From Candidatus Tantalella remota (GTDB lineage Bacteria; Omnitrophota; Gorgyraeia; Tantalellales; Tantalellaceae): 64,000 nt of DNA. The notes under the pieces are model-generated. The model searched no databases. It was not told the DNA's origin and saw only the letters and a program-made list of their open reading frames with translations. Numbering within the stretch: position 1 is the stretch's first letter; every line of letters begins with the position of its first letter. Both the position numbers and the translations under genes were made by a program. The DNA is taken from the NCBI GenBank assembly GCA_030765685.1, contig JAVCCB010000041.1:75549-139548 (forward strand), read 5' to 3'. Of the stretch, positions 12,036 to 31,510 are shown in pieces.

Positions 12036-13097
12036 TCATCCAAGCAGTTTCTCAAGCTCTTCTATGTCCCCCGACCTCGCCAGCGCCTCCTCTACAGAAA
12101 CAACACCCGCCTTATAAAGTTCTGAAAGCGACTGGTTCATCGTACGCATCCCGTATTTCTGGGACGTCTGTATTATCGAATATATCTGATGCTCTTTCGC
12201 GTCCCGTATCATACTCCTGATAGCCGGCGTGGCCACGAGCACCTCTGACGCCAGTATCCTGCCCGGCTTGTCCTTAAATGGAAGCAGTTGCTGGGACAAT
12301 ATCCCAAGCAGAACGAACGACAGCTGTGCCCTTATCTGCTTCTGCTGGTGGGCTGGAAATACGTCTACCATCCTATTTATCGATTGCGTACTGTCGGACG
12401 TGTGCAGTGTCCCCAGCACCAGGTGTCCCGTATCGGCTATAACGAGCGCCTGCTGTATCGTATCAAGGTCGCGTAGCTCTCCTATCAGTATCACGTCCGG
12501 ATCCTGCCTTAAAACGTGCCTCAGGGCCTTTCCAAAAGACCGGGTGTCTTCTATGAGCTGTCTCTGGTCGATAATGGCTTTTTTATTCGCGTGAACAAAT
12601 TCTATCGGGTCCTCGACCGTCACGATGTGGCAGCTTCGATTCGCGTTTATCTCGTCCACCATAGCGGCAAGCGTCGTAGATTTCCCGCTTCCGGTAGCAC
12701 CCGTGACCAAAACCAGCCCTTTCTGTGCCCTGCAGAAACTCCTCACTATGTCGGCGGGTAATCCGCATTCCTCTATCGTCAGTATCTTCAGCGGTATGAG
12801 ACGTATCGCGCAGCCGATATTACCGCGCTGAAGAAAAAGGTTACCCCTGTACCTGCCTACATCTTCTATGGTAAAAGAAAAATCGAGTTCCATTTCATAT
12901 TCAAATTTTTTGACCTCTTCCGCGTTTATGAACCCGTAAACTATTTTCTGCACCTCCTCTGCCGAAAGCGCCCCACCTTCGAGACGAACAAGTTCGTTGT
13001 CTATCCGGTAATGCATCGGAGAATTAGCGCTTATGTGAAGATCTGACGCCCTTTTCTCGACCATATCGATAAGTATTTTTTTGATGTCCTCTCTCAT
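12036..13097 (-). CDS. pilT: PilT twitching-motility (retraction) ATPase
   Basis: 353 aa; Walker A GATGSGKSTTLAAM, HLVLGTLHT His box, PilT-typical length, no N-terminal extension. Confidence 0.85.
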   Translation of the reverse strand: MREDIKKILIDMVEKRASDLHISANSPMHYRIDNELVRLEGGALSAEEVQKIVYGFINAEEVKKFEYEMELDFSFTIEDVGRYRGNLFLQRGNIGCAIRLIPLKILTIEECGLPADIVRSFCRAQKGLVLVTGATGSGKSTTLAAMVDEINANRSCHIVTVEDPIEFVHANKKAIIDQRQLIEDTRSFGKALRHVLRQDPDVILIGELRDLDTIQQALVIADTGHLVLGTLHTSDSTQSINRMVDVFPAHQQKQIRAQLSFVLLGILSQQLLPFKDKPGRILASEVLVATPAIRSMIRDAKEHQIYSIIQTSQKYGMRTMNQSLSELYKAGVVSVEEALARSGDIEELEKLLG

Positions 13098-13133: not shown

Positions 13134-14549
13134 TTACATCCAGCCCACGACCCTGTTCCGTCCGTCCTCGCGAGCTTTTTTCATATAACTCCTGGCTTTC
13201 TCTATTATCTCCTTGCCGGTAGCTCCGTCTATCGGGTTCTCACCCACCCCTATGCTCGCGGTCACCCGGTCGCCTTCGGAGGCCGAGATCTCGAGTTCTT
13301 CTATGATCTTTCGCAAGTTCTCCGCCAACTCCATACTTTCCCTCTTGTTCATCTCCGGCAGCAAGATCCCGAATTCGTATTCTTCAAAACGCGCTATTTT
13401 CCCGATGGGCGGCAAAACCTTGGCCAGCATGTCCGATATGTGCTTTATTACCTGCTGGGACTTTGACAGGCCATAGTCATCGGAATACCGGTCAAAATTA
13501 TCCAGGCCCAGGACCACCAGAGAACAGGGCCTCTGATAATATACCGCCCTGTTGATCTCGTCTTCCAGGCGATCCTGCAAATACGAAAGCGTATAAAGCC
13601 CCGTCAGCGTATCGACGACTTCCAGGTCTTTCACCTTTTCGAATGCCTGCGATGTCTGGTATCCGAGAACCAGTTCCTTCTCAAAAGCACGAAGAACCTC
13701 TATATCCTCCGTACTGAAAGTAGCGGACGCGGTGTAATTGGCCAGCACCATGACTCCTATGACACTGTTGTGAAGTTTTAGGGGGAACATAACCATGTTC
13801 ATGCCGCCAAATTTATCTTTAAGTTCTTTCTGCCACGGCTTCTTTGTCGGGCGCGTATCCACCAGCAGGTATTCGTTGCGAACGAACAGTTTTTCTATGT
13901 CCCCAAGCTCTCCCTCTATCCGTGATACCGGGACTTCTTTTTCGCAATTATCACAGAAAGACCTCATGGAATACTTGCCCCCCTTTTCCTTCATAAAAAT
14001 CGCGCAGAATCCTCCGTACAATTCGCCGGCTATCCTGTCCGCGGCAAAACTGGTTATCTCATTAAAATCGGCGCCGGTGGAGATCAGGTCCCCCAGTCTC
14101 ATAAGATTCGTAAGGGTCAGGACCTTCTTATGCACCCTCGCATTCAAGACGGCAGTCTTACGGCTGTAAGCCTGCAACTCGCCGATGTAGTTTCGCATCT
14201 TACCCGTCATAGTGTTGACCGCGCTGGCAATGTCCCCCAGCTCGTCCTCTCTCATCACCATTATCTTGGAATCATACTGACCCTCAGCGATTATCTTTGT
14301 CTCAAGCGCGAGGTTGATGATCGGGTTCACTATTTCCTTCATCAAAATGTATCCCGCATAAGACACCCAGAGGACGAACATGACGATCGCCGTTACCTGG
14401 AACGTGCTGGCCGGGGATCCGGGAAATATGTAATAAGTCACAAGATACGCTATTACGAGCAGCGGTATGATGGACATCAAAGAAAAAGCCAAAAGTAGTT
14501 TATACTTAAGGCTTTTTGTCCCGACCGAAAGATATTGTAGTAAACCCAT
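13134..14549 (-). CDS. membrane HAMP-GAF-GGDEF-like protein with degenerate active site
   Basis: Two N-terminal TM helices, a HAMP-like linker, and a C-terminal GGDEF fold (LDNFDRYSDDYG...). The catalytic RYGGEEF position reads RFEEYEF, and no RxxD I-site sits upstream. Confidence 0.7.
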   Translation of the reverse strand: MGLLQYLSVGTKSLKYKLLLAFSLMSIIPLLVIAYLVTYYIFPGSPASTFQVTAIVMFVLWVSYAGYILMKEIVNPIINLALETKIIAEGQYDSKIMVMREDELGDIASAVNTMTGKMRNYIGELQAYSRKTAVLNARVHKKVLTLTNLMRLGDLISTGADFNEITSFAADRIAGELYGGFCAIFMKEKGGKYSMRSFCDNCEKEVPVSRIEGELGDIEKLFVRNEYLLVDTRPTKKPWQKELKDKFGGMNMVMFPLKLHNSVIGVMVLANYTASATFSTEDIEVLRAFEKELVLGYQTSQAFEKVKDLEVVDTLTGLYTLSYLQDRLEDEINRAVYYQRPCSLVVLGLDNFDRYSDDYGLSKSQQVIKHISDMLAKVLPPIGKIARFEEYEFGILLPEMNKRESMELAENLRKIIEELEISASEGDRVTASIGVGENPIDGATGKEIIEKARSYMKKAREDGRNRVVGWM

Positions 14550-14752
14550 AAGGTCCTCCTGAACTATAAAAGTTGTTTATTTAGTATTGAAGATGATAAT
14601 AACAATAATACATGACGTATAGGTAAAAGTCAAAATAGTGGCCATAGTAAAAATAAGACTAATAACCTAAGGGGGTGATCAAGGTTGGGGCTTGGGTGTT
14701 GGGTCTTGGGTATTGAGGGTAGCCTCTGTTGACCGCCAACCACCACAGAAGT

Positions 14753-14922
14753 AAAATCGTCATCCCCGCATGTTCTTAGCGGGGATCCAATAAAAGTCCA
14801 CTTCTATTTGATCCCGGATATTCACCTTCCGCCTTCGCCAAGCTGTTCAGGTTTTATCGGGCTACGGCGGACTTTGTCGCCAAGGCTATGGCGAACAGGT
14901 CGGCGAATTCCGGGATGACGTT
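14753..14922. repeat. MITE-like repeat family B, copy 1 (TIR CGTCATCCCCG / CGGGATGACG with internal hairpin)
   Basis: AATCGTCATCCCCGCATGTTCTTAGCGGGGATCC...CCTTCGCCAAGC...GGCGAACAGGTCGGCGAATTCCGGGATGACG; about 165 bp; homologous copy at 17067-17225. Confidence 0.6.
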
Positions 14923-15023
14923 CTCTCCCAATACCCGGTACTCGATACCCGGTACTTATCCCTGATGACTGGGTACTGATGACTGATCACTGACCGGTCA
15001 AGACTGGACCGTCAGCTTCCGTT

Positions 15024-15213
15024 GAAATCCAAATGACAAAATCCAAATGACAAATGAAATCCAAAATCCAAATAACAAAACGTGCAAAGACAAAAAAACA
15101 ATGCTATTAAGAGAAAGGTATGAAGTACAAACAAGGCAAAAAAAAGAAACTAGCATTTTGGATTTAATGATCTGGGCTTATTTTGGATTTTGGGCTTTGG
15201 TTTTGGGATTTAA
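15024..15213. repeat. repeat family A, copy 2 (inverted orientation, with about 100 bp of internal sequence)
   Basis: AAATCCAAATGACAAAATCCAAATGACAAATGAAATCCAAAA ... TTTTGGATTTTGGGCTTTGGTTTTGGGATTT. Confidence 0.6.
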
Positions 15214-15224
15214 CCAGCGTCTGA

Positions 15225-16976
15225 TCACTTATCATACAAACCGCTCGCTTCAAGCTCTGAGAGGAGATACTCTTTATCCACTTCCACAATAATGTGATCC
15301 CAGGGCAGAACGTCTTCCTTCGAATAAGTGCGGCACGCATATTCCGTCATGTCCACTCCCTCAGAGTCAAACGCTTCTTTCCATATATTGATGTTGAAAC
15401 TTTCATTCCACCCGTCCATCCTGGCGCCTTTTTGCCACGCGCGGTATATGATGTCCGAGATCTCGCGCCCCCCTCTCGATATACACGCTTCCAAAAGCGC
15501 CTGGTCAAGGTCATGAAATTCGACTTTTACCTTTTTCGAGGATCCGGACCTTAGAACATCTTTTGTCCGCGACATGCCTTCCGGGTCTTTCATCCCGATC
15601 CACTGCAGGGGCGTATGCGGTTTCGGGATAAACGGGTTGACGCTGACGCGTATCTCAGCGGCACCGCCGGAAGATACTTTTTTCTTGAGCGCGGATATCT
15701 CTTTTCCGAGAGCAACTATTTTCCCTGCCTCATCTTCCGGCTCACCGGGAAACCCTACCATAAAATAAAGTTTCAGCCTTCTCCAGCCGTGACTGAAAGC
15801 CAGAGAAGCTGACTTGCAAAGCACCTGGGTATCTATTTTTTTACCGATAGCTTCTCTCACCTCACCTGAGGCCGCTTCCGGCGCAAAAGTCAGTCCGGTC
15901 TTGCGTATCGCTGATATCATCTCAGGAAGTTCGTAAAAAGCCTCATCCACCCGCAGCGACGGTATCGACAGCGCTACTCCTTCACCGGAAAAATCCTTGT
16001 TAAGAGCCTTGATCAACTCCGCCAGACGCGGATAATTAACACTGGAGAGCGACAGAAGAGCTATACTTTCATAGCCCGTCAGCTCGTATGTCTTCCTGCA
16101 TATATCCCTCACACGCTCGGGCGTCCTTACCCGAACAGGACGATTTACTATTCCCGCCTGGCAAAAGCGGCATCTGTTGGGACACCCCCGCATGATCTCC
16201 ACGGCGATCCTGTCATGGACGACCCTGACCAGGGGAACTATCTGCTTTTCAGGATAATACGCGTTCTCCAGAGACGCAATCGATACCTTTCGTATCTTAT
16301 CCGGGATCCCGTCCTCAACAGCTTCCAGTCCCATAAATTTACCTTCCGCTTGTATAGCCCGGTAAAAACGCGGCACATACACTCCCTCCAAAAGCGAAAG
16401 CTCTTTCAGTATCTCGTTCCTGTCGTCAGTTCTTTCTTTGGCTTTCCTGTACGCTTCGATAAACACGGGTAAAGCTTCCTCGGCGTCACCGATAAGAAAA
16501 GCGTCCACGAACGCGCTCATAGGTTCAGGATTCGATGCGCAGGCGCCTCCCGCGATAACAAGCGGTTCTTCGTTACCCCTGTCCTTTGACAGGACGGTGA
16601 CCCCTCCGAGCGAGAGCATGTCCAAAACGTTCGTATACGTCAACTCATACGAAAGGCTGAACCCCACAATATCGAACTTGTCCATGTCCGTCCTTGATTC
16701 AAGACTGAACAGCTTCAGGCGGTTCTCGATAAGCTCTCCCCTCATATCCTCCCACGGCATAAACACCCGTTCACATACGATTTTCTCCTGTTCATTTAAG
16801 AGATGATACAAAAGACGCAGCCCCAGATAGCTCATCCCCACTTCGTACGAGTCGGGATACGCGATAAGCACCGAAGTCCTGTCCGGAGAGAATCCCTTGC
16901 GTACGCTGTTGGTCTCTTCGCCTATATAGCGTCCCGGCTTTTGTATTTTATGCAATATGTCTTGGATAGTATTCAT
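15225..16976 (-). CDS. B12-binding-like / radical SAM domain protein (TIGR03960-like)
   Basis: 583 aa; N-terminal B12-binding-like region, CPNRCRFCQAG (CxxxCxxC radical-SAM cluster motif). Confidence 0.7.
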   Translation of the reverse strand: MNTIQDILHKIQKPGRYIGEETNSVRKGFSPDRTSVLIAYPDSYEVGMSYLGLRLLYHLLNEQEKIVCERVFMPWEDMRGELIENRLKLFSLESRTDMDKFDIVGFSLSYELTYTNVLDMLSLGGVTVLSKDRGNEEPLVIAGGACASNPEPMSAFVDAFLIGDAEEALPVFIEAYRKAKERTDDRNEILKELSLLEGVYVPRFYRAIQAEGKFMGLEAVEDGIPDKIRKVSIASLENAYYPEKQIVPLVRVVHDRIAVEIMRGCPNRCRFCQAGIVNRPVRVRTPERVRDICRKTYELTGYESIALLSLSSVNYPRLAELIKALNKDFSGEGVALSIPSLRVDEAFYELPEMISAIRKTGLTFAPEAASGEVREAIGKKIDTQVLCKSASLAFSHGWRRLKLYFMVGFPGEPEDEAGKIVALGKEISALKKKVSSGGAAEIRVSVNPFIPKPHTPLQWIGMKDPEGMSRTKDVLRSGSSKKVKVEFHDLDQALLEACISRGGREISDIIYRAWQKGARMDGWNESFNINIWKEAFDSEGVDMTEYACRTYSKEDVLPWDHIIVEVDKEYLLSELEASGLYDK

Positions 16977-17066: not shown

Positions 17067-17225
17067 GAAATCGTCATCCCCGCATGCTCTAAGCGGGGAT
17101 CTCGTAAAAATGTCCACTTTTATGTGATCCAGGATATCCACTATCCTCCTTCGTTAAAACTTCCTCCTTCGCCAAGGCTACGGCGGACAGGTCGGCGGAC
17201 AGGAAGCGGATTCCGGGATGACGTC
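17067..17225. repeat. repeat family B, copy 2
   Basis: AATCGTCATCCCCGCATGCTCTAAGCGGGGATC...CCTTCGCCAAGGCTACGGCGGACAGGTCGGCGG...GATTCCGGGATGACG. Confidence 0.6.
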
Positions 17226-26650: not shown

Positions 26651-26802
26651 GAAATCGTCATCCCCGCATGTGACCGAGGGGCAAAGGCCCCCGAGAAAAC
26701 CGAAGGTTCCCCGTAATGAAATTAAATGCATGTAGGGAAATTCCGAATACCAAAGGGCTTCGGCCTCTACATGGAGCGTCATCCCCGCGTAAGCGGGGAT
26801 CC
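26651..26802. repeat. repeat family B, copy 3 (two hairpin modules in direct orientation)
   Basis: GAAATCGTCATCCCCGCATGTGACCGAGGGG ... GAGCGTCATCCCCGCGTAAGCGGGGATCC. Confidence 0.5.
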
Positions 26803-31479: not shown

Positions 31480-31510
31480 GACGTCATTCCCGCGAAAGCG
31501 GGGATGACGC
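31480..31510. repeat. family B minimal hairpin module (perfect 13-bp stem palindrome)
   Basis: GACGTCATTCCCGC GAAA GCGGGGATGACGC, located between the DUF167 gene and mtnP. Confidence 0.5.

Follow-up and report, generated by a model that had tools for sequence, protein, structure and literature searches.

The 64-kb stretch of Candidatus Tantalella remota (Omnitrophota) DNA analysed here, called the window below and used for all coordinates, carries a type IVa (T4a) pilus cluster. At the head of this cluster lies a gene for a membrane-anchored HAMP-GAF protein that ends in a GGDEF-fold domain. The signature of this domain reads EEYEF, and the product is referred to as the degenerate GGDEF protein. 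An earlier note, made from the sequence alone, had reported this gene beside pilT and a neighbouring MshEN protein, and had suggested a sensory regulator of pilus activity. The follow-up described here finds that the domain has lost the known nucleotide contacts, that such loss is the rule in an Omnitrophota family linked to pilus operons, and that the domain is kept under purifying selection. On balance, the protein probably acts through protein contact and not through catalysis.

The degenerate GGDEF protein and its cyclase site

The gene starts with ATG, and an AGGAGG Shine-Dalgarno sequence stands 5 nt before the start codon. A structural model of the protein was made with AlphaFold2 (AF2) from a 64-sequence family alignment (mean predicted local distance difference test score, pLDDT, 85.8). 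In this model, two transmembrane helices joined by a loop of about 7 residues form a hairpin, as expected from the membrane anchoring claimed earlier, and a periplasmic sensor domain is absent. The HAMP match follows directly after the second transmembrane helix and is modelled as helix-loop-helix, while the GAF region has an alpha/beta topology of the GAF type. Both domains had been named in the earlier note. HAMP scores above its cut-off in the protein itself, and GAF (PF01590) does so in positional orthologues, with 47 bits in P0095 and 38.8 bits in P0107. Foldseek also aligned the GAF and GGDEF part of the model with Dcsbis (4zmu) and with a phytochrome-linked diguanylate cyclase (DGC; 5llw).

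The GGDEF fold that had been seen at the C-terminus is recovered by profile and structure searches. PF00990 matches aa 312-466 with 100.1 bits (E 1.4e-28, cut-off 23.8) and TIGR00254 reaches 92.3 bits (cut-off 37.4), with the protein stopping 5 residues past the domain. Among structures, Foldseek matched the C-terminal domain of the model to 3ign (TM-score 0.91, root-mean-square deviation 2.2 Å), GcbC (5euh, TM-score 0.91) and WspR (3i5b, TM-score 0.86). The features of the gene and of its surroundings are collected in Table 1.

Table 1. Features of the degenerate GGDEF gene and the adjoining pilus cluster, in window coordinates
Feature	Position	Strand	Basis
Degenerate GGDEF gene (transmembrane-HAMP-GAF-degenerate GGDEF; predicted pseudo-diguanylate cyclase)	13134..14549	(-)	intact open reading frame (ORF), 471 aa, domain matches
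Membrane hairpin (aa ~14-70)	14340..14510	(-)	AF2 helices aa 14-41 and 49-88
HAMP domain (aa 69-119)	14193..14345	(-)	PF00672, 30.6 bits, cut-off 25
Signalling helix / coiled-coil linker (aa 120-160)	14070..14192	(-)	helix aa 103-157 unbroken in AF2 model
GAF-like domain (aa 161-300)	13650..14069	(-)	PF01590 (in orthologues), AF2 model, Foldseek
GGDEF-fold domain (aa 312-466), catalytically degenerate	13152..13616	(-)	PF00990, TIGR00254, Foldseek
Lost guanine-contact residues: Ser356 (PleD Asn335), Gln365 (PleD Asp344)	13455..13484	(-)	alignments
I-site position, PPIG (aa 380-383) for RxxD	13401..13412	(-)	alignments to 3ign and PleD
Degenerate signature EEYEF (aa 389-393) at the GG[D/E]EF position	13371..13385	(-)	phmmer against PDB
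Promoter-like site TTGACT-17-TATTAT	14605..14633	(-)	10/12 positions; ~55 nt upstream of start; weak
pilT, retraction ATPase	12036..13097	(-)	TIGR01420, 453 bits; 36 bp downstream of the degenerate GGDEF gene
Stand-alone MshEN protein, 149 aa	11553..12002	(-)	PF05157, E 3e-19; NF053729, 68.5 bits
PilB-type extension ATPase, 575 aa	9816-11543	(-)	T2SSE and TIGR02538
PilB-type extension ATPase, 570 aa	8096-9808	(-)	T2SSE and TIGR02538
pilC	6862-8082	(-)	Pfam
Pilins (two)	6349-6702, 5854-6183	(-)	Pfam
Tetratricopeptide repeat (TPR) protein	3947-5845	(-)	Pfam
pilM	2280-3305	(-)	Pfam
Unassigned ORF in pilN position	1589-2260	(-)	position
pilO	960-1592	(-)	Pfam

Degenerate GGDEF domains are catalytically inactive and often serve as receptors or scaffolds, and the RxxD I-site of the receptors lies five residues upstream of the GGDEF signature. 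Residues were mapped through phmmer alignments of the protein to PDB sequences and through a PleD alignment of an orthologue. The stretch RFEEYEF falls on RYGGEEF, RWGGEEF and RFGGEEF of 3ign, 5llw and 6zxb, which bears out the EEYEF reading made earlier. Both glycines are replaced by glutamate and the third position changes from glutamate to tyrosine (codons GAA GAA TAC GAA TTC). The I-site of PleD, R359xxD362, corresponds to P380-P-I-G383, so the absence of RxxD stands as well.

These alignments, the PleD comparison that had been proposed as a check among them, uncovered more losses than had been listed. In addition to the replacement of both guanine-contact residues, Asn335 and Asp344, PleD Lys332 corresponds to Asp353. 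Among the metal ligands, Asp350 (PleD D327) is present and the position of PleD Glu370, the third of the signature, is Tyr391. Signature, guanine-contact pair and metal-ligand set all depart from those of active cyclases, and the case for catalytic inactivity is therefore stronger than first argued. Judged by these residues, GTP binding, synthesis of cyclic di-GMP (c-di-GMP) and classical I-site binding of c-di-GMP have most likely all been lost. Of the two functions that had been suggested, receptor or scaffold, that of a scaffold or relay fits the residues, while a receptor in the usual I-site sense does not, as PPIG takes the place of RxxD.

A distinct family in Omnitrophota

A word-indexed search gave some 110 full-length relatives, each about 470 aa long, and nearly all of the named ones belong to Candidatus Omnitrophota. 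Public annotation of these relatives (for example P0005, P0008, P0035 and P0040) reads 'diguanylate cyclase'. An exhaustive profile search added about 90 further full-length representatives, with identities down to 24%. Residue columns were counted over 189 full-length family members. None of them has Asn at the column of PleD Asn335. A [GSA]G[DE]EF signature is found in 16 and RxxD in 14, and 159 of the 189 have neither. Because the guanine-binding Asn is missing throughout and most members lack both signature and I-site, the public label is almost certainly wrong and amounts to systematic over-annotation.

Other residues are strongly conserved, in three motif stretches: Cys342; Pro398-Glu399-x-Asn401-Lys402; and Glu437-Asn438-Pro-x-Asp-Gly. 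Cys342, Pro439 and Asp441 are present in 189/189 members and Gly442 in 188/189, followed by Lys402 (183/189), Glu399 (182/189), Asn438 (177/189), Glu437 (176/189) and Asn401 (171/189). Asp350 is kept in 150/189 members and Glu392 in 120/189. Residues of the transmembrane hairpin are also unusually conserved (G66 in 185/189, P29 in 182/189 and Y35 in 150/189). The true DGCs among the lowest-ranking hits carry K / ND / D / RxxD / RYGGEEF at the catalytic and I-site positions and lack the family motifs.

The family can be delimited by QRPC[SAG], PE-x-NK[RK] and ENP[IL]DG, a length of about 470 aa, a transmembrane hairpin with P29, Y35 and G66, and a gene at the head of a pilus cluster. The protein of the window has YYQRPCS, PEMNKRE and GENPIDG together with P29, Y35 and G66. 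It thus appears to be a typical member of a distinct Omnitrophota family of GGDEF-like proteins, in which the doubly degenerate state, without signature and without I-site, is the rule. Neither this family nor a c-di-GMP-dependent control of pili in Omnitrophota turned up in literature searches.

The nearest orthologue, which is 92% identical and belongs to an independent assembly (GCA_964624805.1), has EDHEF at the signature, and the three variable signature positions thus differ even at this short distance. Between these two genes, the ratio of non-synonymous to synonymous substitution rates (dN/dS, Nei-Gojobori) amounts to 0.053 over the whole gene and to 0.062 within the GGDEF domain, at a dS of 0.86. 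In the close clade, mean pairwise identity is highest in the signalling helix (0.69), followed by the GGDEF domain (0.54), the transmembrane region (0.49) and the GAF domain (0.42). The low dN/dS and the better conservation relative to the GAF and transmembrane regions argue that the dead GGDEF domain is not decaying. Within the same clade, the first three signature positions vary (FDYDEF, SDDGEF, FGEKEF and others), and the final EF and an upstream PP[VI]GK[VI]AR are fixed.

To trace the history of the signature, 83 positional orthologues were placed in a neighbour-joining tree. GGDEF-like signatures are confined to one clade, in which Arg stands for Asn335 and Glu for Asp344; every clade outside it is fully degenerate. 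Inside this clade, the signature has again been lost several times (SGKEF, SGNEF, SGFEF, GVDEF, DWDEF, AGDKF) with Arg and Glu kept. Fitch parsimony requires at least 8 changes, and 12 separate all-degenerate clades result if loss is irreversible. Loss of the signature along so many paths indicates that catalysis is not what selection maintains in this family.

The Arg/Glu pair, which P0095 and P0107 combine with GGDEF, co-occurs with GGDEF-like signatures in 17/18 and 18/18 cases and was considered as an alternative guanine-recognition pair that might mark active enzymes. This idea was downgraded, since the pair also survives in members with a dead signature and is thus no proof of a non-canonical active site; it may be structural. 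At the deep end of the family, P0239 has an I-site at canonical spacing (RPID-x3-R-x-EEDTL) and a dead signature. Its residues appear to represent a classical receptor state of the PelD/PopA type, which was lost in the clade of the window's protein.

Profile matches to the family were also found in six much longer proteins (P0172, P0196, P0217, P0225, P0263 and P0264; 1274-3094 aa), each in 7-12 separate stretches, which indicates that GAF/GGDEF-like modules recur along each of them. Giant proteins with GGDEF domains have been reported from Omnitrophota (bioRxiv 10.1101/2023.11.21.568195), and these six may be related to them.

The pilus operon and its MshEN protein

Downstream of the degenerate GGDEF gene follow pilT, the gene for a small stand-alone MshEN protein and two genes for PilB-type ATPases (T2SSE, 456 and 450 bits; TIGR02538, 654 and 631 bits). 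The remainder of the T4a pilus cluster (960..8082, reverse strand) has the same gene order in loci L001-L004. In four distant genomes the order mreBCD-PBP2-rodA, an optional radical S-adenosylmethionine (radical-SAM) gene, degenerate GGDEF gene, pilT, MshEN, pilB, pilB, pilC and pilin is retained, and one of the orthologues concerned is only 34% identical. The tandem pilB pair is conserved throughout the phylum.

When species-representative genomes were surveyed, at least 296 of them proved to encode relatives. Counts were taken from the best 80 loci, all of them in Omnitrophota metagenome-assembled genomes. Among these, pilT lies immediately downstream of the degenerate GGDEF gene in 74 of 77 informative loci, and in 67 of 68 the gene after pilT is that of a small MshEN protein. 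Spacing between the degenerate GGDEF gene and the pilus genes is operon-like, typically 10-60 bp. No terminator-like site was seen in a scan of the 36-bp gap to pilT. The number of sites that the terminator and promoter scans returned in this region, which include the weak promoter-like site in Table 1, does not exceed shuffle expectation.

In the deep lineages L060, L078 (a complete chromosome) and L086, the order is degenerate GGDEF gene, MshEN, pilB and pilB, and pilT does not lie between. In L086 (8001-9766), the stop codon of the degenerate GGDEF gene, which encodes P0239, overlaps the MshEN start by 4 bp. Since deep branches drop pilT and keep MshEN-pilB-pilB, the constant partner appears to be the MshEN/PilB module, with pilT frequent but dispensable. 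The place of the gene at the edge of the pilus locus, as first reported, is confirmed and holds phylum-wide; the reported adjacency to pilT is seen in most loci and not in these deep branches.

Several of the operon-bearing contigs (L006, L011-L013, L018 and others, from binchicken co-assemblies) are titled 'uncultured Planctomycetia bacterium', which looks like a placeholder or a misclassification.

The c-di-GMP motif of MshEN domains consists of two 24-residue motifs with a 5-residue spacer, and domains were scored against the 22 constrained positions of its relaxed tandem form (Wang et al. 2016, PMC5013675). The stand-alone protein matches 20/22 positions (KLGEILVSSEVITTEQLQRALDFQ, spacer RHEGG, LLGEILIKLGYVKEDDIVHALTMQ). 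One mismatch falls in each motif, so that both the strict and the full relaxed regular expressions fail. The NF053729 model of the c-di-GMP motif clears its cut-off of 38 bits by a wide margin (Table 1), and the protein aligns with the c-di-GMP domains of MshE (5htl) and PilF. The neighbouring MshEN protein of the earlier note is thus well founded, in its domain matches and in its recurrence across loci.

The N-terminal MshEN domains of the two PilB-type ATPases in the window score lower, at 14/22 (575-aa protein) and 13/22 (570-aa protein), whereas stand-alone MshEN proteins at orthologous loci have 19-21/22 positions in every clade. Together, these motifs suggest that the stand-alone protein is the probable c-di-GMP receptor of the operon, and it may serve the pilus motor as a detached adaptor for c-di-GMP. 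No other GGDEF domain was found in the 64-kb window with the family and the canonical hidden Markov models in six frames. Across genomes, the PilB MshEN domains score 17.6 and 17.9 of 22 in the GGDEF-spelling clade and 16.2 and 14.3 in degenerate genomes, a difference (Mann-Whitney p 1e-4 and 2e-5) that ignores phylogeny and serves as a lead only.

Upstream, a TIGR03960-family B12-binding radical-SAM gene (15225-16976, reverse strand, 627 bits) lies between rodA and the pilus operon, as it does in 53 of 67 loci. The spacer between it and the degenerate GGDEF gene measures 675 bp in the window and about 60-115 bp in orthologous loci; its length is due to the insertion of an element resembling miniature inverted-repeat transposable elements (MITE) or repetitive extragenic palindromic (REP) sequences. 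This element of about 170 nt has copies at 14758-14920 and 17072-17223, on both sides of the radical-SAM gene, and partial copies at 26656-26791 and ~31495-31509. It is bounded by terminal inverted repeats (CGTCATCCCCGCAT ... ATTCCGGGATGACG) and, as RNA, is highly structured (-73.2 kcal/mol, z = -5.5). Known RNAs, a c-di-GMP riboswitch among them, were considered for the 675-bp spacer and rejected: Rfam gave nothing at gathering threshold in the whole window and nothing at E<=1 in 14450-15300. Short tandem repeats, TGAAATCCAAA(A/T), occur at 15023-15079 and 15155-15204, between the radical-SAM stop codon and the MITE-like element, with inverted partners about 110-135 nt away.

Proposed role and comparison with known systems

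Taken together, the degenerate GGDEF protein is, in our view, somewhat more probably than otherwise a non-enzymatic pseudo-cyclase that uses protein contact to pass a signal from the membrane or the GAF domain on to the pilus motor. The protein would be a membrane-anchored dimer encoded by the first gene of an operon that continues with pilT, MshEN, pilB, pilB, pilC and the pilins. A signal would be sensed within the membrane through the conserved hairpin, possibly touching the PilC/PilMNO platform; the invariant Pro, Tyr and Gly of the hairpin point to specific contacts within the membrane. Alternatively, the GAF domain could provide the input. From there, the signal would pass through HAMP and the signalling helix, as in active HAMP/GAF-GGDEF enzymes, and would change how the two GGDEF-like domains are arranged or which surface they expose, instead of driving catalysis. 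These domains would then engage the stand-alone MshEN protein and/or PilB (most likely), or else PilT, and thereby bias pilus extension versus retraction. Sensing of c-di-GMP would be left to the stand-alone MshEN protein.

Of the sensory regulator of pilus activity that had been suggested earlier, the linkage to the pilus genes is observed; the regulatory role itself, the partner engaged and the direction in which the signal runs we infer from gene order and selection. Several points weigh against the proposed relay. Gene order is association and not mechanism, and the phylum is essentially uncultured. The GAF match of the protein itself (PF01590, aa 181-289, 21.6 bits) falls slightly under its cut-off of 22.4. 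Among the best 80 loci, cell-wall and radical-SAM genes are frequent neighbours as well, with rodA upstream in 44 of 52 and the radical-SAM gene in 53 of 67. The motor partner could be any of MshEN, PilB and PilT. As for the family invariants, a new site for a small molecule could be built from them, and the protein would then be a receptor and not a pure relay.

This last point leads to the best-placed alternative, which we nevertheless regard as unlikely: the GGDEF-like domain would be a receptor for a nucleotide (c-di-GMP, GTP/ppGpp, ATP or another dinucleotide) in a non-canonical pocket of family invariants, apart from the A-site and the I-site, and would control motor engagement in that way. 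Family-specific invariant polar residues do persist to 25% identity, the positions of PleD K442 and R446 are mostly K/R, and Asp350 and Glu392 are often retained. RxxD in deep relatives such as P0239 also places c-di-GMP reception in the history of the family. However, every known contact to a guanine or I-site ligand is gone in the protein of the window. The glycines of the GGDEF signature make room for phosphates, and the acidic residues at both glycine positions should repel nucleotides. Most family motifs moreover lie at structurally conserved GGDEF positions (LPxT, xPxDG) and need no pocket to explain them. Some orthologues cross-match the GdpP-type degenerate GGDEF model (PF24898), which would favour a receptor, but these matches are far weaker than those to PF00990 and absent from the protein itself, and membership in that group was rejected.

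It is improbable that the gene instead serves the upstream mreBCD-PBP2-rodA genes or the TIGR03960 radical-SAM gene, with the pilus operon adjacent and functionally uncoupled. The upstream counts given above and the mreB-to-pilin order of the four distant genomes would agree with such a role. Linkage to the pilus genes is tighter (74/77 and 67/68), with operon spacing and the 4-bp overlap in L086, and five loci (L086, L078, L041, L080 and L082) have lost the rodA/radical-SAM neighbourhood and still have pilus genes downstream. In the window, the 675-bp spacer with its repeat insertion and a promoter-like site also separates the degenerate GGDEF gene from the radical-SAM gene.

Residual diguanylate or other nucleotidyl cyclase activity, feeding the MshEN domains locally, is very improbable. 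The signatures AGDEF and SGDEF have been reported active in other bacteria, and 16-18 orthologues of a single clade spell GGDEF, SGDEF or AGDEF together with the Arg/Glu pair. Genomes of that clade have the better PilB MshEN motifs, phylogeny being ignored, and the protein of the window has kept the metal ligand Asp350 (D327) and Glu392. Yet both glycines, the metal ligand at the third signature position and the equivalents of Asn335, Asp344 and Lys332 are all replaced in it, the variable signature positions differ between 92%-identical orthologues, and the Arg/Glu pair also accompanies the dead signatures SGKEF, SGNEF, SGFEF and DWDEF.

A sequencing or assembly error hiding GGEEF, which the earlier note had named as a possible refutation, or a decaying pseudogene is virtually ruled out, as a return from EEYEF to GGEEF takes at least 4 nucleotide substitutions, an independent assembly reads EDHEF, dN/dS is 0.05-0.06, the frame is intact over 471 aa behind a good ribosome-binding site, and 159/189 family members are equally degenerate.

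Tentatively, the proposed relay could be taken one step further. The GGDEF fold may have been repurposed independently of c-di-GMP, with the invariants forming a site for a new partner or ligand, and together with MshEN it might make up a hitherto unrecognised two-protein module, fed by a membrane signal and by c-di-GMP, that gates PilB versus PilT in ultra-small, host-attaching Omnitrophota; we hold this extension with little confidence. In the same vein, the clade that retains GGDEF together with the Arg/Glu pair may make or sense a non-canonical nucleotide.

T4a pili are near-universal in Omnitrophota and have been implicated in the attachment of these ultra-small bacteria to hosts or prey (PMC10066038). 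The degenerate GGDEF protein is the only obvious signal-input protein of the motor operon and is kept throughout the phylum, and it is thus a natural entry point to the control of pilus extension and retraction. For the evolution of pseudoenzymes, the family also amounts to a natural experiment of unusual clarity: a single positional orthologue takes three states, with the I-site alone, with a GGDEF spelling or doubly dead, and the doubly dead state is in the majority and under strong purifying selection. Degenerate GGDEF proteins are common, and this family overturns no current concept. Its phylum-wide and operon-embedded doubly dead state, with a stand-alone MshEN partner, does offer a well-defined experimental target. 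For genome surveys, the 'diguanylate cyclase' label would inflate c-di-GMP censuses for Omnitrophota.

FimX of Pseudomonas and Xanthomonas likewise has a dead GGDEF domain and controls the T4 pilus motor by contact. In Xanthomonas, a PilZ adaptor bridges FimX to PilB (PMC11656802, PMC5595344), and this bridge is formally like the proposed chain from the degenerate GGDEF protein through MshEN to PilB. However, FimX is a soluble protein in which REC and PAS domains precede a degenerate GGDEF and a degenerate EAL domain, and it senses c-di-GMP through the EAL domain. The protein of the window gave no profile matches for EAL, REC or PAS domains and so lacks the FimX-type architecture; it is membrane-anchored, has HAMP and GAF domains and is encoded inside the motor operon. 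The GDSIF motif of FimX is thought to retain GTP binding, whereas the domain described here has no known nucleotide site. The two are related through their GGDEF domains only and are not orthologues.

PelD of Pseudomonas aeruginosa is a c-di-GMP receptor of the Pel secretion machine, built from transmembrane segments, a GAF domain and a degenerate GGDEF domain. It is like the degenerate GGDEF protein in its membrane anchor, in the pairing of GAF with a degenerate GGDEF domain and in being encoded in the operon of the envelope machine that it controls. PelD is listed among the receptors derived from inactivated enzymes (PMC12448109). It binds c-di-GMP through an intact RxxD I-site, at which the protein of the window has PPIG, so that an I-site receptor of the PelD, PopA or SgmT type is not indicated. 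In addition, PelD is without HAMP and controls polysaccharide export and not pili. Among the deep relatives, P0239 with its RPID and dead signature corresponds to a PelD-like state.

The best structural matches of the GAF-helix-GGDEF part are Dcsbis (PA2771, 4zmu), the phytochrome-linked DGC (5llw) and DgcB (6ttr). The input logic of a dimeric signalling helix is common to all of them and to the degenerate GGDEF protein. These three differ from it in being genuine enzymes: they have GGEEF, Asn335, Asp344 and, in most cases, RxxD, and it has none of these features.

Besides FimX-PilZ-PilB, the use of GGDEF domains as protein-contact modules has precedents in PdeB-HubP of Shewanella (PMC9061725) and in the GGDEF/EAL interactome of E. 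coli (PMC5635695), which show that this fold can work by direct contact without regard to c-di-GMP synthesis. PdeB-HubP and the degenerate GGDEF/EAL proteins of E. coli have other architectures, partners and phyla, and none of them is encoded inside a pilus motor operon.

The stand-alone MshEN protein shares the tandem 24-residue motif and 5-residue spacer with MshE of V. cholerae, PilF of T. thermophilus and PilB of M. xanthus. In contrast to these, where MshEN is the N-terminus of an ATPase, it is free-standing, with 149 aa, and encoded between pilT and pilB. Its first motif residues are Lys/Leu in place of Arg/Arg, and Gly is changed to Glu at the turn of motif 1.

On this comparison, FimX appears to be the functionally closest system and PelD the architecturally closest one. 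The family described here is most likely an uncharacterised variant of a familiar type, in which a signalling protein with a degenerate GGDEF domain is coupled to an envelope machine.

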